Shown here one piece after another: positions 4,288 to 33,568 of a DNA stretch of 33,568 nt. The notes under the pieces are model-generated. The model was not told where the DNA came from and ran no database searches. It saw only the letters and a program-made list of their open reading frames with translations. Made by a program: the position numbers and the translations under genes. Origin of the DNA: a plasmid; assembly GCF_988242995.1 (NCBI RefSeq), contig NZ_OZ547045.1. The stretch is one strand, 5' to 3'. Each line of letters opens with the position of its first letter. Positions within the stretch are counted from its first letter, which is position 1.

Positions 4288-6924
4288 TCACGCTGCGAGT
4301 ACAGATTTAAAGTAGGATTCGAGCCATTTATCAGGGGTATCATCCCCAATTTGCTCAATGATTTTCGCCAGTGTTTCGGCGTTTTGTGGTTCCCCTGACA
4401 GGATGCTAAGTATCTTGTCCAGCTTCCTGAAGTTCTCAGGCGTCTTAACGCGCGGGGCCAGGTTGAATTGCGCCATCGCACTTTGACTACCTTGTTTCAC
4501 AAGGAACTGGCGGGAGTTCTCAGGAATAGACAACAGCGCGTCAAACTCTGCCGGTGTCAGCTTGAGACGGGTTACGTAGTCCTCATAATCCGCATCCGGG
4601 TTTTCCAGAAGAATTTTAGTTACGCACTGCTGCATGATGGTTTTGCCAATGGCACTATCCAGCGCATCGTTTGGCTCTTGCGTGGAGAATACGTAAACCG
4701 CGTCTTTCTTACGGTCTGTTTTCAGGCCGCGTTTCACTTCCACCCGCATAATGGGATCGTCAAGGTACTGGTGAAACTCGTCGAATATCTGAATAACCCG
4801 GCGGCGGCCATCAATAGACTGACGCACACGGAAATTGAGATACATCAGCAGCGGTGTACGTGTTGCAGGAGGTATTTCATTATCTGCAACAATGAAATCA
4901 GTCAGGTCAAAACCGTAAATATCGTACTCACCGAGATTGAGGGAATCCGCGTCGTTATCGAACAACCACCCGTTTTCATGGCCGCGAGTCCACGGAACAA
5001 GCAACGATGCCAGCGTTTGTTTGCTACCCGCTGTTTGATATGGGTTAGGCATCTGACGCATCAACATATCCACGGTACGTAAATCCGTAGGGATAAGGGA
5101 GTTCTCATCCATCAAAGCGTCAACAGCGCGGTTAAGGTCATTCACCTGATCAGCATCGAGCACACTGCCTTTGGTAATTTCAGCACACAGGCGCATCAGG
5201 CGCTTACAAAACGCAATGTTAACTTTAGTGCCTGGCATCTGTAGAGGTGCCCACCCGGACGCAACACCTTCTTTCAAAACTGTATAGTGACCGTGTAACG
5301 CTTTAATCAGCGGCATCATGCCCTGATCACGGTCATAGGCAAAAATGCGCGGGTTATACTTCATTGATTGCGTCAGCAGGAAATTAAGCAGCGTCGTTTT
5401 ACCGGCCCCCGAACGGCCAAGCATTAACGTATGCGCCAGCGGGCGCTTACCGAAAGACATTTCATCTGCGGGCGTTACATGAAAGTTCATATACAGCGGC
5501 GTATTTGCCACAGTCTTGAACAACGTCAGTGCTGGCCCCCACGGATTATTGTTTGCTTTCCCGGACATAAAATTATGGAAAGGAGAGAAACAAAGAAAAT
5601 TCCAGCTATTCAGCGGGCAAGGGCGCGGCGATAAATGTTGATTAGCCGGGAGTTTTGCATAATAGGCCGCTTCGGAAGCTAACCCTACCTGGCTGGCGAT
5701 CAAGCCGCAATTGTTCAGCATATTTCTGGCTACACCGGCGTTTGAACGGGCCTCTTTGAGAGACTTGCCAAAGGTGTGTACCGTCAAATGATGCCAGCCC
5801 ATGATAAAGGTACGTGAAACCACGCCATCAACGGCGTCACTCATCTGGTTTATCTGCGTAAAGGACGGATCGCCTGTTTCCAGCAGCGCTTTTTGCTGGT
5901 TAGTAAGGTAAGTTCTTGCCGCTTGCTGGGACATACAGCAATACGTTTGAGTTAATACAAACTCAAACGGTGCTTCCATCAGGATATTGATTTGACCTGG
6001 TTCTGTATCAGAATCGTAATCCCGGATTTCAACGGCAGACGTGTAGCGGCGTTCGTCAGTACCGCGAATCTCGATACCATCCCCCCAAAATGAGGATATT
6101 GGGCGGGTAGTAGCTAAATATTCACGGATTCGGCCACGACAAACCGGCACTGGTGCCCACTCACCGTTAACCAGGTAATAGAGCCACTCAAGCGCTTTAG
6201 AATAGGTGTGTTGAGCACCACTAAAGACTTCTTTATCTTCCTGAATGTCCTGATATTCCACATCAGCCAGTAAATCCTCACGCAGATCGATAATGTCCTC
6301 ATCATCATCTTCTTCTGCATCTTCCTTTTTCTGCTCAGGAATGACATTCCCTCGCTTGTCGCGGAAGTAATAGCCTAAACGGTCGATGCCATAAGGACGC
6401 AGGGAGTTCATGACCTGCTCACAAACATCTTCCAACGCACCAATAGCATCAGTTTGCATTTCGCGCAGCTCGTCAGCCGATGGCTTATCAAACTTTGCCA
6501 GCATTTTTTGAGCGGCATCCCCTACCGGGTTATAAACAACCGTTAGGTAGAGGTCATTTACCATCATAGGAGTATCATCAAACTGATCGCGATAGTATTC
6601 ATTCACCATGCGCGGGAACGTCATATTGTAATGCGTGTCAGGATAATTATTAATTTCGCGGTGGTGTAAGTGAGTCCATAACTTAATATGTTCACTACCA
6701 ATACCCTTTAAAAGCTGATTTAAATCGGCATGCCACTTAATAAGTTCGGCATCAGAAGCGCAATCATGAGTTCGCCCCCGAATTTTAAATACAGAAAGGT
6801 ACTCCCCATTTACCGTACTGATAATATGAGGTGTTACATGGTAGGAGTAAGGAATATATTTTAAAGAGGATGGTTCTTTTCTGTAATCTTTAACCCCCCT
6901 CTTTTTCATTTCCGCTACGGCCAT
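4288..6924 (-). CDS. virB4: VirB4-family T4SS ATPase
   Basis: 878 aa, Walker A GRSGAGKT, characteristic size and position. Confidence 0.95.
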   Translation of the reverse strand: MAVAEMKKRGVKDYRKEPSSLKYIPYSYHVTPHIISTVNGEYLSVFKIRGRTHDCASDAELIKWHADLNQLLKGIGSEHIKLWTHLHHREINNYPDTHYNMTFPRMVNEYYRDQFDDTPMMVNDLYLTVVYNPVGDAAQKMLAKFDKPSADELREMQTDAIGALEDVCEQVMNSLRPYGIDRLGYYFRDKRGNVIPEQKKEDAEEDDDEDIIDLREDLLADVEYQDIQEDKEVFSGAQHTYSKALEWLYYLVNGEWAPVPVCRGRIREYLATTRPISSFWGDGIEIRGTDERRYTSAVEIRDYDSDTEPGQINILMEAPFEFVLTQTYCCMSQQAARTYLTNQQKALLETGDPSFTQINQMSDAVDGVVSRTFIMGWHHLTVHTFGKSLKEARSNAGVARNMLNNCGLIASQVGLASEAAYYAKLPANQHLSPRPCPLNSWNFLCFSPFHNFMSGKANNNPWGPALTLFKTVANTPLYMNFHVTPADEMSFGKRPLAHTLMLGRSGAGKTTLLNFLLTQSMKYNPRIFAYDRDQGMMPLIKALHGHYTVLKEGVASGWAPLQMPGTKVNIAFCKRLMRLCAEITKGSVLDADQVNDLNRAVDALMDENSLIPTDLRTVDMLMRQMPNPYQTAGSKQTLASLLVPWTRGHENGWLFDNDADSLNLGEYDIYGFDLTDFIVADNEIPPATRTPLLMYLNFRVRQSIDGRRRVIQIFDEFHQYLDDPIMRVEVKRGLKTDRKKDAVYVFSTQEPNDALDSAIGKTIMQQCVTKILLENPDADYEDYVTRLKLTPAEFDALLSIPENSRQFLVKQGSQSAMAQFNLAPRVKTPENFRKLDKILSILSGEPQNAETLAKIIEQIGDDTPDKWLESYFKSVLAA

Positions 6925-7238
6925 TATTTTTTATCTCCATAATCGGTAGGTGAGTAACTAGAGCCGCCCCATAGCTTAGTAAATGGGGAGTTAATCATAT
7001 TTAGCCCTTTCGTCATGATAGCGAGCCATATAATGCGAAACATACGGTCGTCATGCTTGCTGATACAAAATTCAATAAACCACAGCAAGCCAAAAAGAAC
7101 TAAGGCCCAAAGGTGGATCGTCATAAATAACGTCGCACAAAATATGAAGGTGGCAATAATCACTGTTCGCGGAACACCGGCAAATGTCGGCAGTCGCGTA
7201 GCGCCTTTAAATAATGGATATTTACCGGATAAATTCAT
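6924..7238 (-). CDS. virB3: VirB3-family T4SS membrane protein
   Basis: 104 aa, two hydrophobic segments, stop overlaps virB4 ATG (ATGA). Confidence 0.85.
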   Translation of the reverse strand: MNLSGKYPLFKGATRLPTFAGVPRTVIIATFIFCATLFMTIHLWALVLFGLLWFIEFCISKHDDRMFRIIWLAIMTKGLNMINSPFTKLWGGSSYSPTDYGDKK

Positions 7239-12451: not shown

Positions 12452-13036
12452 ATGAAGATAGGCTACGCCAGAAAGTCAACTAAAGAGCAAGACACATCGC
12501 TTGAGTACCAGATTGAGGCTTTACAAAAAGCCGGGTGCGAAAAGTGGTATGCGGAGCAGGTATCGAGAAGCGGTAGTAAACGGCTTAAAGCAGGTACACC
12601 AGAGTTAGAAAATTGCATCAAAGCGCTTCGCCCTGGTGACACGCTGGTTGTGTGGGCGCTAGATCGGTTGGGCGGGACTCTATTACAGCTTTTGCAGCTT
12701 ATGAATGAGCTACGCAACAAAGGCATTCATTTTGAAAGTATTAAAGAACATATCGACACACAAAGTCCAATGGGTGAAATGTACTATTCGCTCATAGCTA
12801 TTTTTTCCAATTTCGAGGTAGCCAGAAACCACGAAAGGACAATGGCCGGGCTTGCGGCTGCAAAGAAGAAAGGGCGCATTGGTGGCAGAAAACCAAAGCT
12901 ATCACCACAAGACATAAAAGAAATTAACGCGCTTGTTAAATCGCCAGAAGTTACGGTAAAAGAGATCGCGGCTCGTTTTAACGTGTCACGGCCAACGATT
13001 TACAGACACATTACCCCCGATAGTAATACTGATTAA
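12452..13036 (+). CDS. Serine recombinase of the resolvase/invertase family (plasmid multimer resolution)
   Basis: 194 aa; N-terminal GYARKSTKEQ with catalytic Ser, C-terminal HTH (VSRPTIYRHI). Confidence 0.9.
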   Translation: MKIGYARKSTKEQDTSLEYQIEALQKAGCEKWYAEQVSRSGSKRLKAGTPELENCIKALRPGDTLVVWALDRLGGTLLQLLQLMNELRNKGIHFESIKEHIDTQSPMGEMYYSLIAIFSNFEVARNHERTMAGLAAAKKKGRIGGRKPKLSPQDIKEINALVKSPEVTVKEIAARFNVSRPTIYRHITPDSNTD

Positions 13037-15133: not shown

Positions 15134-15245
15134 CGCCTCAGAACCCCGTAGAGCCATTCAATCAGAAAAAAGCGGCCTCATGTACAGCTCAACCAAAATA
15201 GCCGCTTACAGAGCCATACAGCGCGTATATAACCAATATCGCCCG

Positions 15246-15690
15246 GCGGCACCGGCGCTAACGTGCCTGTAGGGGCGCTGGCCGCGCTGCGGCCATCCCC
15301 CCAACACCCGGATAAATCGCGCCCGGCCCGTCGCTACGCGCCAGCCCGCCCGCTCAACCGGGCCGTTGTGACGGGCCACTGTTCCGGCAGCGGCATCGTG
15401 TGACAGCCCGCTAAAACCGGCTTTGCAGGGAGGGGGTGGGCGCGTCTCCCGGTTTGATCCCGCAAGGCCCGGCAATTTGACCACGTCGCCCAGGTTGAGA
15501 TCGGCGCAGTTGCCTTTTATTTGTCGGCATCGGCGCTAAATTTAAGTAAATTTATCGTACTATATAATGATACTTAAAGTTGACTTTTGAGGGGGAAAAG
15601 CCTATACTTTATTTACGGTTAGCAATGGTGCTGACCGACCCGGAACCAGTGGCGGCAACCGCTCCGGGGAACTTGCGAAGGGGGCAAGAA
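15246..15690. repeat. CUP-like GC-rich repeat, copy A (5'-truncated; lacks the first ~198 bp of copies B and C)
   Basis: Near-identical to 18515..18959 and 20672..21113. Confidence 0.85.
15580..15636 (+). promoter_or_regulatory. Cassette promoter P1 (TTGACT-17-TATACT) with leader hairpin GGTTAGCAATGGTGCTGACC
   Basis: -35 at 15580..15585, -10 at 15603..15608, inverted repeat at 15617..15636. Confidence 0.7.
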
Positions 15691-16264: not shown

Positions 16265-16341
16265 ACACTTTTAAAGCCCGTAAACCGGGCTTTTTTAGTC
16301 TTTAAAGTACAATTAAAAGTAAAAAATAATGATACCAATAG

Positions 16342-16399
16342 TTGACTTATGGAGGGTGAACACCTATACTTTATTCATCGGTTAGCAATAGTGCTGACC
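16342..16399 (+). promoter_or_regulatory. Cassette promoter P2 (TTGACT-17-TATACT) with leader hairpin
   Basis: -35 at 16342..16347, -10 at 16365..16370, GGTTAGCAATAGTGCTGACC at 16380..16399. Confidence 0.7.
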
Positions 16400-16453
16400 G
16401 GCCCGGAACCAGCGGCGGCAACCGCTCCGGGCAAACTGCGAAGGAGTAATATT

Positions 16454-18316: not shown

Positions 18317-18959
18317 CACTTATGGCGTTCCCTGCGGGGCGGGCTTTCGTGCTGCGCATCGAGCCAGGCAAGCTGTCTCGCCCCTTCGGGCTTCAATCCC
18401 TAACGCCTCCGGGCTGTCGCCCTCCGCGCTCCGCTTGACCCCCACGCCCTGCGCCGGACTTGCCCCGCCTACGGCGGCCCCGCCCCTCCGGGGTGGCTTC
18501 GCCATCCTCTGCCAGCGGCACCGGCGCTAACGTGCCTGTAGGGGCGCTGGCCGCGCTGCGGCCATCCCCCCAACACCCGGATAAATCGCGCCCGGCCCGT
18601 CGCTACGCGCCAGCCCGCCCGCTCAACCGGGCCGTTGTGACGGGCCACTGTTCCGGCAGCGGCATCGTGTGACAGCCCGCTAAAACCGGCTTTGCAGGGA
18701 GGGGGTGGGCGCGTCTCCCGGTTTGATCCCGCAAGGCCCGGCAATTTGACCACGTCGCCCAGGTTGAGATCGGCGCAGTTGCCTTTTATTTGTCGGCATC
18801 GGCGCTAAATTTAAGTAAATTTATCGTACTATATAATGATACTTAAAGTTGACTTTTGAGGGGGAAAAGCCTATACTTTATTTATCGGTTAGCAATGGTG
18901 CTGACCGACCCGGAACCAGCGGCGGCAACCGCTCCGGGCAATCTGCGAAGGTGGGAATT
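18317..18959. repeat. CUP-like repeat, full copy B (GC-rich body ~530 bp plus promoter/leader)
   Basis: Near-identical to 20474..21113. Confidence 0.9.
18849..18906 (+). promoter_or_regulatory. Cassette promoter P3 (TTGACT-17-TATACT) with leader hairpin
   Basis: -35 at 18849..18854, -10 at 18872..18877, inverted repeat at 18887..18906. Confidence 0.7.
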
Positions 18960-19268
18960 ATGAATACTTTCAACGCTGACAAAATCCGCTCTGAACTGGA
19001 TGTTTTAGCGAAAGAAACAATGCCCGGTTGTGGTCTTATTTACGAGCTGTATCAGCGTCGTTTGAGCGCTGCCATTGATAACTTTGTCGCTACCCTGCCA
19101 GCAGAACAACACGCCCAGGCATTTGAACTGGCCCGCCAGGAGTTTGATTACCTTTCTGCGGAAGAAATTGCTGATGAAATCCGCCGCGACTCAGAAAACG
19201 GCTATTGCAGCCACGGCATTGATCGCAATTGCTGCCCTTTGGGTTGCGGGGATTTGGACGATTATTAA
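18960..19268 (+). CDS. Hypothetical small protein with C-terminal Cys cluster
   Basis: 102 aa; ends ...GYCSHGIDRNCCPLGCGDLDDY; ATG after the conserved leader. Confidence 0.6.
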   Translation: MNTFNADKIRSELDVLAKETMPGCGLIYELYQRRLSAAIDNFVATLPAEQHAQAFELARQEFDYLSAEEIADEIRRDSENGYCSHGIDRNCCPLGCGDLDDY

Positions 19269-19830: not shown

Positions 19831-19845
19831 TGCCGGTTTTATGCC

Positions 19846-20005
19846 GCTTACTTATGGCGTTCCCTGCGGGCCGGGCTTTCGTGCTGCGCATCGAGCCAGG
19901 CAAGCTGTCTCGCCCCTTCGGGCTTCAATCCCTAACGCCTCCGGGCTTTCGCCCTCCGCGCTCCGCTTGGCCTCCGGGCTTTCGCCCTCCGCGCTTTGCT
20001 TGGCC
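19846..20005. repeat. CUP-like repeat fragment D (left arm only) with an internal 33-bp tandem duplication
   Basis: Matches the left ~125 bp of copies B and C; CCTCCGGGCTTTCGCCCTCCGCGCT(C/T)(C/T)GCTTGG duplicated at 19939..19971 and 19972..20004. Confidence 0.8.
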
Positions 20006-20380: not shown

Positions 20381-20473
20381 GCTCCCCTTGCTTACCCTGC
20401 TGTACGATCCGTGGATTTCACAGTTGAATAATTTTTTGTGGTCGCCGTAATTGGCCCCGCTGCGCCAGTCGCT

Positions 20474-21113
20474 TACTTAGGGCGTTCCCTGCGGGCCGGG
20501 CTTTCGTGCTGCGCATCGAGCCAGGCAAGCTGTCTCGCCCCTTCGGGCTTCAATCCCTAACGCCTCCGGGCTTCGCCCTCCGCGCTCCGCTTGGCCCCCA
20601 CGCCCTGCGCCGGACTTGCCCCGCCTACGGCGGCCCCGCCCCTCCGGGGTGGCTTCGCCATCCTCTGCCAGCGGCACCGGCGCTAACGTGCCTGTAGGGG
20701 CGCTGGCCGCGCTGCGGCCATCCCCCCAACACCCGGATAAATCGCGCCCGGCCCGTCGCTACGCGCCAGCCCGCCCGCTCAACCGGGCCGTTGTGACGGG
20801 CCACTGTTCCGGCAGCGGCATCGTGTGACAGCCCGCTAAAACCGGCTTTGCAGGGAGGGGGGGGGCGCGTCTCCCGGTTTGATCCCGCAAGGCCCGGCAA
20901 TTTGACCACGTCGCCCAGGTTGAGATCGGCGCAATTGCCTTTTATTTGTCGGCATCGGCGCTAAATTTAAGTAAATTTACCGTACTATATAATGATACTT
21001 AAAGTTGACTTTTTAGGGGGGAAAATCTATACTTTATTTACGGTTAGCAATGGTGCTGACCGACCCGGAACCAGCGGCGGCAACCGCTCCGGGTAATCTG
21101 CGAAGGAAAATGT
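20474..21113. repeat. CUP-like repeat, full copy C
   Basis: Near-identical to copy B over about 640 bp. Confidence 0.9.
21005..21061 (+). promoter_or_regulatory. Cassette promoter P4 (TTGACT-17-TATACT) with leader hairpin
   Basis: -35 at 21005..21010, -10 at 21028..21033, inverted repeat at 21042..21061. Confidence 0.7.
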
Positions 21114-23149: not shown

Positions 23150-23233
23150 TGGGCGTTCCCTGCGGGCGGGCTTTCGTGCTGCGCATCGAGCCAGGCAAGC
23201 TGTCTCGACCCTTCGGGCGTCAATCCCTAACGC
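23150..23233. repeat. Isolated 84-bp left-end module of the CUP-like repeat (copy E)
   Basis: GGGCGTTCCCTGCGGGCGGGCTTTCGTGCTGCGCATCGAGCCAGGCAAGCTGTCTCGACCCTTCGGGCGTCAATCCCTAACGC matches the first 84 bp of copies B, C and D. Confidence 0.8.
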
Positions 23234-27210: not shown

Positions 27211-30117
27211 ATGCTGAATATTACGACTATTACCCGTCAGCGAGTGGATAAGGTTGTCGATTACTACTCTGATGGCGCAGACGATTATTATGCAAAAGAC
27301 GGCAACGCGATGCAGTGGCAAGGCGCTGGCGCGGAGGAATTGGGCCTAACCGGAGAGGTTGAGCAACAACGATTTGCAAAGTTGCTCGATGGTAAAATTA
27401 CGGATGATATTTCCGTGATGCGTAAGACGGCCAACAGCGAAAGCAAAGAGCGGTTAGGTTATGACCTCACGTTTTCCGCGCCCAAAGGCGTTACGCTTCA
27501 GGCGCTGGTCGGTGGTGATAAACGTATAATCGAAGCGCATGATCGGGCCGTGGCAAAAGCTATTGAGGAAGCGGAACGGTTGGCGTTAGGCCGCTTTACC
27601 ATCAACAAAAAAACGCACGTTGAAAACACCAATAAGCTGATTGTTGCGAAATTCAGACATGAAACTTCTCGTGAGTTAGATCCTGAATTACATACCCATG
27701 CGTTTGTAATGAACCTCACCAAAACCAGTGATGGTAAATGGCGTTCACTCACTAATGACGGCATTGTTAACTCGCTTACTTTATTGGGTAACGTCTATAA
27801 ATCGGAGCTGGCAAGAGAGCTGGAGCTGGCAGGTTACAACCTGCGTTATGACCGTAACGGCACATTTGATTTAGCACACTTCACCCCGGAACAAACCGCA
27901 CACTTCAGCCAGCGCAGCCAGCAAATTGAAGATGAGTTAGCAAAAGCGGGATTGACCCGCGAAACAGCCAGCCATGAACAAAAAAATGCGGCCGCACTTA
28001 AAACCCGCAAAAGCAAAAGCGAAGTGGATCGCGATGTTCTCTATGAGGGCTGGAAAACTCGCGCTAAAGAGCTTCAGATTGATTTTGATAGTCGTGAATG
28101 GAAAGGCGCAGCCAAAGACGACATAGCGCGTAATAAGCAACCAGAGCTGGAAAAGCCGATTGAGTATCAGGCTGACAAGGTTATGACCTTTGCTATCCGT
28201 TCGCTCACCGAACGTCAGTCCGTGATCACCGAGCGGGAGCTGATGGATGTAGCAATGAAGCATGGCTATGGCCGTTTAACCGTCAATGATATACGGGCAG
28301 CGAGAGAGCGGGCCATTTCCTCCGGCAACCTCATCAAAGAAGAAACCCGATACGCAGCGGCCACAACCAATAAAAAACAACAGAACGTTGCCATGACACG
28401 CGAACAATGGGTAACGGAACTGGTGAAAGCTGGCCGTAATAAAGATGAAGCCAGAAAACTTGTAGATAAGGGCATCACAAACGGGCGATTGGTACAGCAA
28501 AAAACACGCTATACCACGCAGTTAGCCCAACAACGAGAGCGCAATATCCTGAAACTGGAGAGGGAAGGGCGCGGGAAAATCCAGGCGCCATACACCCGCG
28601 AGTTTAGCGAAGGTTGGTTAGCCAGCAGAACACTAAAACCCGAACAGTTAAAAGCGGTCATGGGGATTATCCACACCTCTAACCAGTTTATTTCTGTACA
28701 TGGGTTTGCCGGTACTGGCAAAAGTTATATGACCAAATCGGCAGCGGATTTTCTCAAAGAGCAGGGCGTACACGTCACCAGTCTTGCCCCCTATGGTAGC
28801 CAGGTAAAAGCGCTACAGGCTGAAGGGCTGGAGTCTCGTACACTCCAGTCTTTCCTCCAGGCGTCAGATAAAAAAATTGGCCCCGGATCAGTCGTTTTTA
28901 TTGACGAAGCCGGGGTAATCCCTGCCCGTCAGATGGAGGAAACTATGCGCGTGATCCGTGATGCGGGCGCACGAGCGGTATTCCTGGGCGATACAAAACA
29001 GACCAAAGCCGTTGAAGCGGGTAAACCTTTCGAGCAGCTTATCAAAGCTGGCATGGAAACAGCCTATATGAAAGATATTCAGCGCCAGAAAGACCCGGAA
29101 TTGTTGAAAGCGGCGCTGAATGCAGCGGAAGGAAAAATAAAGGCATCGCTGGCGCACGTAACCAGTATCGTTGAAGAAAAAAACCATGATCAACGCTATC
29201 GCCGGATTGTCGGGGATTATGTGGCAATGGCACCAACAGAGCGGGCAAACTCCCTGATTATCACCGGCACGAACGACAGCCGGAAAAAAATCAATGAGTA
29301 CATTCAGGCCGAGCTGGGGCTGAAAGGGCAGGGCTTGAATTACCAGCTACTGAATCGCCTTGATACCACTCAGGCCCAGCGCCAGCACAGCAAGTATTAT
29401 GAGAAAGGAGCCGTAATCATCCCGGAGCGGGATTACAGTAACGGGTTGAAGCGTGGGGGCGTTTATACCGTTCTCGATACCGGCCCCGGCAATAAACTAA
29501 CGGTAAGCGACAGCAGCGGCGACACTATCGCATTTTCACCGGCGCGATTTTCAAAGTTATCCGTGTACTCAGTAGAAAAAACGGAGCTGGCCGTGGGCGA
29601 CCAGGTAAGGATCACCCGTAACGATGCACACCTTGATTTAGCGAACGGCGACCGTTTTAAAGTTAAGGGCGTCCAGAGTGGTGAGGTATTACTGGAGAAC
29701 GAAAGAGGGCGTCTGGTAAAAATTGATGCCAGCAAGCCTATGTACTTAGGGCTGGCATACGCCTCGACCGTACATAGCGCTCAGGGGCTGACCTGCGATA
29801 AAGTTTTTATCAATATGGATACCCGATCACTCACAACGGCCAAAGATGTTTATTACGTAGCTGTCACCCGCGCTAAACACGAAGCCGTCATTTATACCGA
29901 CGATGAGAAAAAGCTGGATAAAGCGGCCAGCCGTGAAGGGTTCAAAACCGCAGCGCTTGAGCTGGAACAACTCAAACGCTACGCCAAAGAGCAGCAACAT
30001 GATTCCCGCGAAAAAGGCCGCGACAAAGCAGAGCCGACACCGGAGAAAGATAATTCCCGGCGTAAAGGCAAGGGCCATGAAAAAAATAACGACGACAGAG
30101 CATTTAACCCGCTCTAA
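27211..30117 (+). CDS. trwC: MOBF relaxase-helicase (TrwC/TraI family)
   Basis: 968 aa; N-terminal relaxase domain with tyrosine pairs (DYYSDGADDYYAKDG), HTHA motif (ELHTHAF), C-terminal helicase Walker A GFAGTGKS. Confidence 0.95.
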   Translation: MLNITTITRQRVDKVVDYYSDGADDYYAKDGNAMQWQGAGAEELGLTGEVEQQRFAKLLDGKITDDISVMRKTANSESKERLGYDLTFSAPKGVTLQALVGGDKRIIEAHDRAVAKAIEEAERLALGRFTINKKTHVENTNKLIVAKFRHETSRELDPELHTHAFVMNLTKTSDGKWRSLTNDGIVNSLTLLGNVYKSELARELELAGYNLRYDRNGTFDLAHFTPEQTAHFSQRSQQIEDELAKAGLTRETASHEQKNAAALKTRKSKSEVDRDVLYEGWKTRAKELQIDFDSREWKGAAKDDIARNKQPELEKPIEYQADKVMTFAIRSLTERQSVITERELMDVAMKHGYGRLTVNDIRAARERAISSGNLIKEETRYAAATTNKKQQNVAMTREQWVTELVKAGRNKDEARKLVDKGITNGRLVQQKTRYTTQLAQQRERNILKLEREGRGKIQAPYTREFSEGWLASRTLKPEQLKAVMGIIHTSNQFISVHGFAGTGKSYMTKSAADFLKEQGVHVTSLAPYGSQVKALQAEGLESRTLQSFLQASDKKIGPGSVVFIDEAGVIPARQMEETMRVIRDAGARAVFLGDTKQTKAVEAGKPFEQLIKAGMETAYMKDIQRQKDPELLKAALNAAEGKIKASLAHVTSIVEEKNHDQRYRRIVGDYVAMAPTERANSLIITGTNDSRKKINEYIQAELGLKGQGLNYQLLNRLDTTQAQRQHSKYYEKGAVIIPERDYSNGLKRGGVYTVLDTGPGNKLTVSDSSGDTIAFSPARFSKLSVYSVEKTELAVGDQVRITRNDAHLDLANGDRFKVKGVQSGEVLLENERGRLVKIDASKPMYLGLAYASTVHSAQGLTCDKVFINMDTRSLTTAKDVYYVAVTRAKHEAVIYTDDEKKLDKAASREGFKTAALELEQLKRYAKEQQHDSREKGRDKAEPTPEKDNSRRKGKGHEKNNDDRAFNPL

Positions 30118-30330
30118 GTGACACCCCCGGACAGTACCGGCACAACGCACCCTGGATTATTGGGAGCCGGTTTTGTCGGGGGTTTTCCTGTATTTATATT
30201 GCGTCTAACCCGTACAATCTTTTTCAGGCAGCTTGAATGACTGCCACCTTTTTTTCGTCGCCGGCAGCTGATGGCCAACGCGGGCGCCCAACCAGCTAAA
30301 TCAATAAAAACAGTATGTTAACGGAGGGGG

Positions 30331-30370
30331 AAATAAAAAAAGGGCATTCAAATAATTTGATGCCCTTTGT
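30331..30370. terminator. Hairpin terminator between convergent trwC and the nuc operon
   Basis: A-run, AGGGCATtcaaataatttgaTGCCCT, then TTTGT. Confidence 0.6.
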
Positions 30371-30419
30371 GGGAATTTGCGTACCGGAGTAGTTAGCGGC
30401 TTTTAAGTTTGTGAACAGC

Positions 30420-30687
30420 CAAGAAGGGGTCAGTTTGGAGATCGGAAATTTTTGTACGTTAAGCGCATTATTTAACCAATCTTGGTTCGTAAGGGGTTGA
30501 TTTTGCGTCAGTGGCTATCGCTTTTAAGTTGTCGCTCTTGCAGTATCGCATTTAGGTTATCCGATTAAGGTCAAACCTCTGAAAATGCCGTATAGCGCGG
30601 GAGTACACCCTATTGCTATAGGTAAGTCTGTTCAAAAAACAGGCTTACCGTACAATAATTCTCTATATCCAAACTGACCCCAAGAAG
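30420..30687. mobile_element. MITE-like non-autonomous element: 12-bp terminal inverted repeats flanked by a 7-bp direct repeat
   Basis: CAAGAAG (30420..30426) - GGGTCAGTTTGG (30427..30438) ... CCAAACTGACCC (30669..30680) - CAAGAAG (30681..30687); 254 bp between TIR ends; no ORF inside. Confidence 0.55.
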
Positions 30688-30770
30688 CAAAGCCCCACGA
30701 CCACCACACCGACAAACACACAAAGTGAAAGTGTCAAAATAGCATCATTGAATCTATCGGCTGCTGTCAT
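30657..30770 (-). CDS. Candidate 37-aa single-TM peptide, translationally coupled to the GNAT gene; 3' end formed by the MITE-like insertion
   Basis: MTAADRFNDAILTLSLCVFVGVVVVGLCFLGSVWI; GGAGG 7 nt upstream of ATG; ATG 2 nt after the GNAT stop. Confidence 0.4.
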
Positions 30771-30772
30771 GG

Positions 30773-31267
30773 TTAACCCTCCAATCGGTACGTTTTTTTA
30801 CCGCCTTGCGTTTCATTGATGATAGTAAACCCACTTCCGGCCAGCAATCCCATCATTTTAGTTGATGGAGGCAAACAGGACGCTTCCAGCCGGTGGCCGG
30901 GGGTGGCTTCAATAATGGAGTTGAGCATACTCTTACCAATGCCTTTACCCTGCTTATCGGCTGAAACAGCGAACATGCGGATCTCAAGATGAGACGCAAG
31001 GCCAGCAAAGTTATTGCGTCCGGTTAACAGCGCAAACCCTACCGGTTTACGTGTTAATTGCTCATCAAAGATAAAGAGATAATCCGCAACGGGGATATTA
31101 GCGCTGTATTTTTGAGTGACAGCTTGTAGCTCAGATTTGACCGTTTCCAGGCCATCACCATTAGCATAGAAAAATGCGCCAGATGTAATGCCCTCGCGCA
31201 CCAGATTCATGATAAAAGGAATATCTTTGTCGTTTCCTAACCGCATATCGAGCATAGCGCCCTCCAT
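30773..31267 (-). CDS. GNAT-family N-acetyltransferase
   Basis: 164 aa; acetyl-CoA-binding motif region ...VSADKQGKGIGKSML...; ATG adjacent to nuc stop. Confidence 0.75.
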   Translation of the reverse strand: MEGAMLDMRLGNDKDIPFIMNLVREGITSGAFFYANGDGLETVKSELQAVTQKYSANIPVADYLFIFDEQLTRKPVGFALLTGRNNFAGLASHLEIRMFAVSADKQGKGIGKSMLNSIIEATPGHRLEASCLPPSTKMMGLLAGSGFTIINETQGGKKTYRLEG

Positions 31268-32816: not shown

Positions 32817-33568
32817 TCATTTCTAACCCATAAACAGTGCTGAAATCGAGATCGCGGGCTACGTAGATGGATACAGCATCGCCCTGGGCGGCATAGAGTG
32901 TTGGCGGGATATTGATTTTCGCCCGTAATGCCTCCGTAGCAAGCTGGTCGGTACTGTTTTCCGTTGTGTTAAACGTCACATCAGAGCTGTTGTTGTTTAT
33001 CGACGCGATACCGGCTTTCATCCCATCAGTCAGCACAGAGAAAAAGATTGCATCGCCCATGCGTTCCCAAAAGTGAGAATTAACCTGGCCGGGAATGCCC
33101 GCACTACCTAAAGAGTTAGTGCCGCTGCTGTCGAGGTTAACAAGCGTCTGATCCGGGTTACGCAAGCGTGACCAGAGGACAAACACACGATTCTGGCCGT
33201 TCTGGATACCGCTATTCTGCTCACCCGTTACTACAGCCCCTTTATCAATCAGTTTCACAGTGCCATCGGCAGAGTACACATCACGGCTAACGGTACATTT
33301 AACCTGGCCCGGAACAGTGGTATCCAGTTCGGTATTTGTACCGCAAGGGATCATAGTGCCTTGCGCAATTGTCAGATTGGGATGTGGCATTACAGATGCC
33401 TGGGCGACGGCCATACGCGCCGGTTTCATACGGCTAGCCAGTGCCTGGCTGCTTGAGCTGGTTTCTGTATTGTCCTGACCGGCCCGGCGCTCCTGGTCTT
33501 TCGCTGTCGTGGCCTGTTTTTCAGGATCTACACCGTTGAAAGACACACCTAACCGGGCGCGCATTATT
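32809..33568 (-). CDS. virB10: VirB10/TrbI-family protein, C-terminal part (continues in frame from positions 2..1 across the window junction)
   Basis: VirB10 C-terminal beta-barrel-like sequence; frame continuous with the N-terminal part at 1..398. Confidence 0.85.

Follow-up and report, generated by a model that had tools for sequence, protein, structure and literature searches.

A MITESen1 insertion with a putative res-like interior in the last codons of a small open reading frame of an IncN-type conjugative plasmid

The stretch of DNA analysed here (the window; 33,568 nucleotides) is a complete circular plasmid, in which alignments continue from position 33568 into position 1, and the host is a small IncN-type conjugative plasmid. 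Its virB-PLD nuclease-GNAT operon, read on the minus strand, converges on the relaxase gene. The GNAT-family acetyltransferase gene (30773 to 31267, minus strand; Pfam matches and the annotations of the related plasmids L003 and L004) is read in line with the PLD nuclease and virB genes of this operon and lies immediately upstream of a small open reading frame (ORF; 30663 to 30770, minus strand; ORF list and translation), which is preceded by a good Shine-Dalgarno sequence (GGAGG, 7 nt upstream of the ATG). The operon ends at an intrinsic terminator (30344 to 30367, minus strand), a bulged one that a promoter/terminator scan missed and that was confirmed by folding (−13.8 kcal/mol, a stem followed by UUUUUUU, T7 in the DNA). 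Between ORF and terminator lies a 256-bp insertion, whose target was the last codons of the small ORF, after the GNAT gene and at the 3′ end of the operon.

In the window the small ORF encodes 35 amino acids, 30 native and 5 read from the right inverted repeat of the insertion, and ends in GLCFLGSVWI-stop. The original prediction had it as a 37-codon ORF closed by that repeat; the GSVWI-stop ending stands, and the count becomes 35 amino acids plus stop, or 36 codons. Removing the element together with one copy of the flanking repeat yields a 38-amino-acid ORF ending in GLCFLAVHKLKSR, as had been predicted, and plasmids with an empty site encode exactly that peptide. The insertion thus swaps the final eight codons (AVHKLKSR) for five (GSVWI), and it has moved the terminator, which in empty sites lies directly downstream of the intact ORF, 261 bp further away. 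The intact ORF has 38 amino acids in L003 and L021 to L025 and 44 in L004; among public contigs on which the ORF is called, 58 carry the intact 38-amino-acid form and 113 the 44-amino-acid variant, and the truncated 35-amino-acid form was absent among approximately 15 billion proteins. The frame is kept across an 18-bp indel in L004, substitutions remain hydrophobic, and the ORF is predicted by gene callers. Between L024 and L004 the small ORF has four nonsynonymous and two synonymous codon changes, and the GNAT gene has one and six. The peptide matched no family in an NCBIfam search, and tblastn against plasmids returned the identical L003 copy as its only match. The ancestral small protein that had been proposed is borne out as an ORF, and that it is a real protein-coding gene is plausible from its sequence.

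At the ends of the insertion, the direct repeat CAAGAAG (30420 to 30426 and 30681 to 30687) encloses two 12-mers, GGGTCAGTTTGG (30427 to 30438) and CCAAACTGACCC (30669 to 30680), spaced 230 bp apart, and the 13-mer GGGGTCAGTTTGG has two exact occurrences in the 33.5-kb window, both at the element ends. These strings had been taken for 12-bp terminal inverted repeats and a 7-bp target duplication; they are present where predicted, and both lengths have to be revised. Alignment of the two ends (30426 to 30463 against 30644 to 30681) gives imperfect 38-bp inverted repeats (IRs) matching at 32/38 positions, both arms of which start GGGGTC, one with the inner end ACGTTAAG and the other with ACGGTAAG. 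The left IR (IRR of the ISfinder entry; 30426 to 30463, plus strand) is GGGGTCAGTTTGGAGATCGGAAATTTTTGTACGTTAAG, and the right IR (ISfinder IRL; 30644 to 30681), which reads GGGGTCAGTTTGGATATAGAGAATTATTGTACGGTAAG on the minus strand, is the source of the codons GSVWI-stop. The element accordingly runs from GGGG (30426) to CCCC (30681), 256 bp, and the flanking duplication is the 5-bp AAGAA (left copy, 30421 to 30425; right copy, 30682 to 30686, from the end alignment and the comparison with empty sites, which have a single AAGAA). The native target is CC-AAGAA-GC, and the 7-bp repeat is only apparent, because the native C before and G after AAGAA equal the terminal C and G of the element. Towards the right end lies a subterminal hairpin, GGTAAGTCTGTT-CAAAA-AACAGGCTTACC (30621 to 30649; −16.5 kcal/mol, z = −4.6), which overlaps the inner end of the right IR and is kept in all family members compared.

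Empty sites were sought with the window sequence from which the element and one repeat copy had been removed in silico. This query gave continuous matches in two PLSDB plasmids, with a single CAAGAAG in the alignment, and empty sites were found in L003, L004, and L021 to L025; in five contigs with the intact ORF the genes follow one another as in the window, and the junction reads GTGAACAGCCAAGAAGCAAAGCCCC. L024 is 99.95 to 99.99% identical to the window over 19.6 kb, with 261 bp (256 + 5) as the sole structural difference, and the site is empty in the more diverged L004 (93.7% identical) as well. No filled site was found in PLSDB. Related plasmids thus match the conceptual excision base for base, and the predicted transposition event is confirmed by these empty sites and by the identity of the element with a catalogued one.

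That catalogued element is MITESen1, a named TIME (Tn3-derived inverted-repeat miniature element; PMC13367494) first described on an IncX1 Salmonella plasmid (Pong and Hall 2021, as cited in PMC13367494). The reverse complement of 30426 to 30681 is identical to the ISfinder sequence of MITESen1 (taken from Table S2 of PMC13367494) at 255/256 positions without gaps, the sole mismatch lying at window position 30617; the copy lies on the minus strand, reversed relative to the ISfinder entry. Chance origin is excluded by this agreement. The features by which TIMEs are delimited (50 to 500 bp, no transposase gene, a 5-bp or rarely 6-bp duplication) are all found here: the segment is 256 bp long and encodes no transposase, its only internal ORF being a mechanical one of 30 amino acids; its IRs have the Tn3-family form (about 38 bp, with GGGG at the outer end and ACGTTAAG at the inner end); and the AAGAA duplication was checked against empty sites. 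Tn3-family elements are recognised by IRs of about 38 bp that start GGGG and by a 5-bp duplication (Nicolas et al. 2015, as summarised in PMC13367494). The parental insertion sequence family that had been envisaged does not hold up: the element is nonautonomous, as proposed, with a Tn3-family transposon for its parent, which makes it a TIME, and membership among insertion-sequence-derived MITEs was rejected on the IRs, which match those of Tn3-family transposons, and on a duplication of 5 rather than 7 bp.

MITESen1 is abundant. Matches were found in 4,550 of 72,556 PLSDB plasmids, which answers the suggested search for other genomic copies; 1,410 of these extend over at least 80% of the element length, and 402 are at least 99% identical. 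Among complete Escherichia coli genomes (n = 5,426) it is present at 1,467 plasmid and 33 chromosomal sites. Copies 100% identical to that of the window sit in many unrelated plasmids in PLSDB, which points to a recent arrival; since the element had been catalogued before, the insertion is an ordinary finding. More distant family members, 76 to 92% identical to the window copy, keep the architecture of about 257 bp, and several have their own 5-bp duplications. In the family as a whole, five independent 5-bp duplications were found besides AAGAA (ATACG in L009, AAGTA in L014, TTCAA in L016, TTGCA in L018, and TGTAA in L034). Target duplications are absent from most copies examined, which shows that these copies were rearranged and does not indicate by what mechanism. 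MITEs of 256 to 257 bp with IRs of about 39 bp flanking blaNDM-1 modules were described in 2015 (Sun et al. 2015, PMC4439573); the 257-bp copy of pYNKP001-NDM (L026, 26037 to 26293) is 91.4% identical to the window element, and the same plasmid has an 89-bp remnant with 100% identity.

The original prediction of a mobilisable element without a transposase inside was upheld, no similarity to TnpA or TnpR being found in it. Nor was such similarity found in the whole circular plasmid, whose transposase-size ORFs are limited to the relaxase and VirB4. As the complete plasmid has no Tn3-family transposase, one encoded on another replicon would have mobilised the element in trans. Gomi and Yano (2026, PMC13367494) reported no similarity of the MITESen1 interior to the res sites of Tn3, Tn21, or Tn1721 and named no cognate transposon. 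Matches confined to the element ends led to Tn3-family transposases. One complete transposon (L013; NZ_CP059887.1, 111463 to 118363; 6,901 bp) is flanked by a CTGAA/CTGAA duplication and carries divergent tnpR and tnpA genes and the cargo frmR-frmA-fghA. Its IRs are identical to both MITE IRs at 34 to 35 of 38 positions, whereas the MITE IRs match each other at only 32/38. In NCBIfam, the L013-type TnpA is assigned only to the generic Tn3-family transposase (NF033527, 1,127 bits), with no lineage name; accessions of TnpA proteins of the L013/L010/L041 type are WP_072756842.1 and WP_000124023.1. Of the L013-type tnpR-tnpA module, at least 80% was found in each of 557 plasmid records. A literature search for the IR string returned only unrelated papers on pig qPCR primers.

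With IRs 35/38 identical to the left IR of the window element, transposons of the L013/L010/L041 type are the best candidates for the TnpA partner. The interior is only about 70 to 78% identical to theirs over the alignable part, which makes them kin of the parent rather than the direct parent itself. Klebsiella michiganensis DSM 25444 carries an intact TnpA, 97.8% identical to that of L013, on plasmid contig L041, and on another contig (L042) a MITESen1 that is 100% identical to the window copy; co-residence of this kind is what mobilisation in trans would call for. Tn5403 was also considered, because it accompanies these MITEs in IncN2 plasmids, and was rejected as parent or mobiliser: its 39-bp IR (from L026) matches at only 19 to 21 of 38 positions, and its TnpA shares 35% identity with that of L013. 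The IRs of Tn3, γδ, and Tn1721 were also used for comparison.

Tn3-type transposons with divergent genes have res in the tnpR-tnpA intergenic region, and it is with this region of L013 that the interior of the element aligns (Smith-Waterman score, 196; shuffles, 77 ± 14, 0/500 as high; one orientation only). A motif scan identified four 14-bp direct repeats, TATCGCTTTTAAGT, TGTCGCTCTTGCAG, TATCGCATTTAGGT, and TATCCGATTAAGGT (30516 to 30571, plus strand), in exact 14-bp phase (starts at 30516, 30530 [weak], 30544, and 30558), which are candidate accessory resolvase sites. After a spacer of about 20 bp they are followed by a 14-2-14 dyad, TATAGCGCGGGAGT-AC-ACCCTATTGCTATA (30591 to 30620, plus strand; centre at 30605 and 30606), which is an inverted pair of the 14-bp motif and the candidate res site I (crossover). 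Elsewhere in the window such motif matches number about 0.12 per 180 nt. The motif TATCGCATTTAGGT is common to the MITE interior and the L013 intergenic region, in the same layout, and the repeats align with the same repeats between tnpR and tnpA in both L013 and L010, so that the interior is homologous to the candidate res region of a transposon of the cognate type. Across the members that are 76 to 92% identical, conservation is patchy and concentrated on the 14-bp motifs and the dyad, and the spacers vary.

The candidate TnpR is a serine recombinase with Sin (2r0q), and not γδ resolvase, as its best PDB match (E = 1.7e-6, 31 bits); the res architecture is read by analogy, because this protein is only distantly related to characterised resolvases. 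Sin/β-type res sites consist of a crossover dyad and direct-repeat accessory sites, a layout reportedly worked out for Sin by Rowland and colleagues in 2002 and Mouw and colleagues in 2008. By this analogy, the MITESen1 interior would be the res site of an L013-type lineage. The plasmid also encodes a serine recombinase of its own (12452 to 13036), which shares only about 30% identity with the TnpR of L013 over 74 amino acids and is thus unlikely to be the cognate enzyme.

Junctions that map to the dyad bear on its putative function. L017 is a single-switch chimera with 48 L018-type informative sites followed by 12 of the MITESen1 type; its switch interval (30599 to 30617) contains the dyad centre, and it has no target duplication. 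A scan of species-representative genomes gave 20 further loci. These combine the conserved right module (IR, hairpin, and right half-site) with left partners unrelated to one another, and the junction lies at the dyad centre. The left partners are accessory sites of the L013 type with tnpR (L033 and L043), a tnpA-side half-site of the L013 type (L041, an IR-tnpA-IR element of 3,150 bp), the locus of a resolvase that shares 48% identity with that of L013 (L036), and DNA of no recognised kind (L027, L045, and L038, the last of which shares the whole dyad). Similarity to the right module ends no more than 3 nt from the dyad centre in 6 of 11 independent loci (binomial P, approximately 9e-7, or 3e-5 with a wider breakpoint interval), a small and nonrandom sample from which full-length family members were left out. 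Boundaries in this count are the ends of gapped blastn alignments; an ungapped breakpoint finder was replaced because 1- to 2-nt indels in full-length members confounded it. Since homologous recombination cannot join partners that lack homology on one side, the dyad would be a site-specific crossover point, and the junctions at its centre suggest a working res crossover site. The centre itself is AC in the MITE and GT in L013 in the collinear orientation, which complicates a simple parallel recombination of res with res. Taking alignment, architecture, and junctions together, we hold the odds to be about even that MITESen1 has a working Sin-like res that is recognised by an L013/L041-type resolvase, with TnpA of the same lineage moving the element.

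A competing explanation of these data is that the interior is a nonfunctional leftover and that the chimeras and swaps arose by homologous recombination, intramolecular transposition, or shared ancestry. The 2026 survey, which found no similarity to characterised res sites, agrees with it, as does the point made there that copies without duplications can come from RecA-dependent recombination between copies (PMC13367494); the differing centre dinucleotides of the MITE and L013 also fit, and a single true MITE × MITE chimera type was examined (L017; chance, about 7%). Against it, what diverged members have conserved sits on the 14-bp motifs and the dyad while spacers drift, and partners whose sequences left of the dyad are not homologous (those of the tnpA and tnpR sides, the locus of the 48%-identical resolvase, and unrecognised DNA) are nonetheless joined at its centre. 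We consider the leftover explanation possible but rather doubtful.

Far less can be said for co-option of the insertion at this site, for example as the source of a small RNA, as a promoter that reads outward, or in regulating the conjugation operon. The element does contain a stable hairpin and a promoter-like sequence (TTCAAA-17-AATAAT; 30631 to 30659, plus strand), which points outward from the right end and antisense to the operon. Promoter-like sites, however, occur at the frequency of shuffled sequence (2 found against 1.7 expected), and terminators were likewise no commoner than in shuffles; an Rfam scan of 30000 to 31000 had no match at an E value of ≤1, so that known small RNAs lend no support; and the insertion allele is rare or unique, which gives no sign of selection for it. 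Co-option is therefore very unlikely.

Two other histories of the element itself are more improbable still. The first is the literal parse, that of an insertion-sequence-derived MITE with perfect 12-bp repeats, a 7-bp duplication, and an insertion sequence transposase. CAAGAAG does flank a perfect 12-bp inverted repeat at this single site, but the inverted repeat extends to 38 bp in the Tn3-family form (GGGG to ACGTTAAG), all other copies start with GGGG and end with CCCC while the bases outside differ and the duplications are 5 bp, the native target flanks account for the two extra bases, and full-length relatives encode the Tn3-family TnpA mentioned above. The second has a full-length Tn3-family transposon arriving at this site and shrinking there to 256 bp. 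MITEs ultimately derive from their parents by internal deletion, and the interior has its homologue in the res region of a parent; yet the same 256 bp with the same internal junctions are found at many unrelated sites with their own duplications, and therefore the deletion occurred once, long ago, in keeping with an architecture of about 257 bp common to members down to 76% identity. We regard each of these histories as highly improbable. Weakest of all, and to be dismissed for practical purposes, is the idea that the plasmid lineage had the segment from the start and that precise deletion produced the empty sites, which draws no specific support beyond the fact that precise excision between repeats of 5 to 7 bp is possible in principle, and which meets an intact ORF on all of the contigs counted above, a truncated form found nowhere among proteins, no filled site in PLSDB, and a diverged relative (L004) that is empty too.

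The account we favour is that of a TIME, MITESen1, in an IncN-type plasmid, probably moved in trans by TnpA of the L013/L010/L041 type and carrying a res-like interior, and as a whole we judge it very probable. MITESen1 transposed into the last codons of the 38-codon ORF of the conjugative plasmid, duplicating AAGAA; the TnpA of a co-resident transposon would have acted on the 38-bp IRs by the replicative (cointegrate) route of the Tn3 family, and cointegrates could then have been resolved at the putative interior res by the cognate serine resolvase. The element may also serve as a portable recombination site at which flanking modules are swapped.

For the window itself the significance is small: a known mini-transposon sits in a permissive spot between convergent operons, where it has clipped an unproven 38-codon ORF. 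There is some value for annotation, as records routinely pass MITESen1 over (nearly all PLSDB matches listed have “none” or “hypothetical protein” as their feature). Pairs of MITESen1 mobilise qnrS1, floR, qnrD1, and blaNDM-1 contexts (PMC13367494, PMC4439573, and PMC10464136), and a solo copy makes the plasmid a ready docking site for resistance modules. If the res reading is true, every MITESen1 copy is a portable hotspot of site-specific recombination at which modules are exchanged at one dinucleotide, which would explain both the lack of target duplications at most copies and the resistance modules that adjoin copies. MITESen1 being already known, what is added to the 2026 survey is probably modest: a candidate parent lineage and a res-like interior, which would fill a gap stated there (PMC13367494).

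Among known elements, the window copy shares with the MITESen1 entry its 256-bp length, 38-bp Tn3-type IRs, 5-bp duplications, and plasmid-borne distribution, and differs in nothing substantial; it is a solo copy at an unrecorded site, outside a resistance-gene composite (TIME-COMP). The MITEs flanking Tn125-like blaNDM-1 modules in IncN2 and IncFII(Y) plasmids (PMC4439573) are of the same family, but those bracket resistance modules, whereas the window copy carries nothing. Two further TIMEs of enterobacteria, TIME244/MITEEc2 and IMU (PMC13367494; Poirel et al. 2009, as cited there), are close to MITESen1 in size and also make 5-bp duplications, and TIME244 has a putative res (PMC13367494); their IRs and the TIME244 res, however, belong to the Tn21 subgroup, while the MITESen1 IRs group with Tn3, IS101, and TIME2 (PMC13367494). 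Transposons of the L013/L010/L041 type resemble the MITE in their IRs (34 to 35 of 38 positions), the collinear tnpR-tnpA intergenic region, the 5-bp duplication, and the kinds of plasmid they inhabit; unlike the MITE, they are autonomous (TnpA, 995 amino acids; TnpR, 211 amino acids) and 3.1 to 6.9 kb long.

With Sin/β-type res sites, the interior has in common a 30-bp dyad, a variable spacer of about 20 to 30 bp, and direct-repeat half-sites; it differs from Sin res in having four phased 14-bp repeats in place of one site II, and no site for an architectural protein was identified in it. The closest functional parallel is IS101, the 209-bp TIME of pSC101, which is mobilised and resolved by γδ/Tn1000 (Ishizaki and Ohtsubo 1985, as cited in PMC13367494). 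IS101 is of a different lineage (the γδ IR matches the MITE IR at about 21/38), and its res function was shown experimentally, whereas that of MITESen1 is deduced here, with a candidate resolvase nearer to Sin than to γδ resolvase. In design, nevertheless, the two would be alike: two Tn3-type IRs around the res of a parent, no genes, and both TnpA and TnpR supplied in trans.

The conjugative IncN-type plasmid spanning window positions 1-33568 is circular and complete, since alignments to five related contigs pass from 33568 directly into position 1. Without the insertion it would be 33,307 bp long; the filled allele, carrying the 256-bp non-autonomous Tn3-family mini-transposon MITESen1 (30426-30681), had no match in PLSDB. 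Secondary BLAST hits within the plasmid marked several dispersed repeats (15243-15681, 16326-16445, 18318-18967, 19845-19969, 20473-20563, and 23152-23233; 84-98% mutual identity), which may be the conserved upstream repeats (CUPs) of IncN plasmids. The plasmid also encodes a 194-aa serine recombinase (12452-13036, plus strand; best NCBIfam hits, XisF and Mpi type), only ~30% identical over 74 aa compared to the candidate MITE-cognate resolvase TnpR, which is encoded by the Tn3-family transposon L013.

The small open reading frame whose 3' end is cut by MITESen1 also varies among empty-site plasmids. In the diverged plasmid L004 (CP074311.1), an 18-bp in-frame insertion (window equivalent, ~30400-30420) extends its basic tail, giving a product of 44 instead of 38 aa. 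In public data this longer form is the more frequent, found on 113 contigs versus 58 for the 38-aa form.

Copies of MITESen1 in three IncX5 plasmids (L001, L005, and L008) and two Col plasmids (L002 and L007) had one flank in common and the other different, with no target duplications at any of the five. In the IncX5 plasmids, ~115 bp separate the dqlB type I toxin gene from the element, which lies downstream of it. The KPC-2 region of p15WZ-82_KPC is bordered by the element.

Shortened and decayed family members were also observed. A 161-bp derivative in Acinetobacter idrijaensis (JQCU01000403.1, 2251-2411), the sole copy outside Enterobacterales among those found, kept both terminal inverted repeats (IRs) and lacked the 14-bp accessory repeats. 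Two Escherichia coli IncF plasmids (L019, CP099268.1; L020, CP088434.1) carried decayed members (locus ~1501-1744, ~76% identical) with degenerate IRs and without target duplication; ccdAB lies near the L020 copy. Such copies may be the source of many lower-identity E. coli plasmid matches to MITESen1 in the PLSDB search, which, if so, would point to a fixed insertion of long standing in an IncF backbone.

Remnants of MITESen1 were found beside Tn5403, a transposon rejected as its parent or mobiliser. In Shimwellia pseudoproteus (NZ_WBXP01000086.1, ~6881-6974), the outer limit of the dyad (a 14-2-14 inverted pair) is where a Tn5403-type IR directly meets a remnant, and Tn5403 therefore inserted immediately next to putative res site I. 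An 89-bp remnant lies within an accessory module of pYNKP001-NDM that contains Tn5403.

Two larger related elements were identified. L013 (NZ_CP059887.1, 111463-118363), on an IncHI2 plasmid, is a complete 6.9-kb Tn3-family transposon whose cargo is a module for formaldehyde detoxification, made up of frmR, frmA, a VOC-protein gene, and fghA. A 3.86-kb element in Serratia marcescens (JADMXW010000044.1, 583-4442) has one MITESen1-type end and no tnpA, and it is non-autonomous, with the layout IR-res-tnpR-cargo; its dyad is hybrid, its accessory sites are of the L013 type, and its tnpR shares 95% identity with that of L013.
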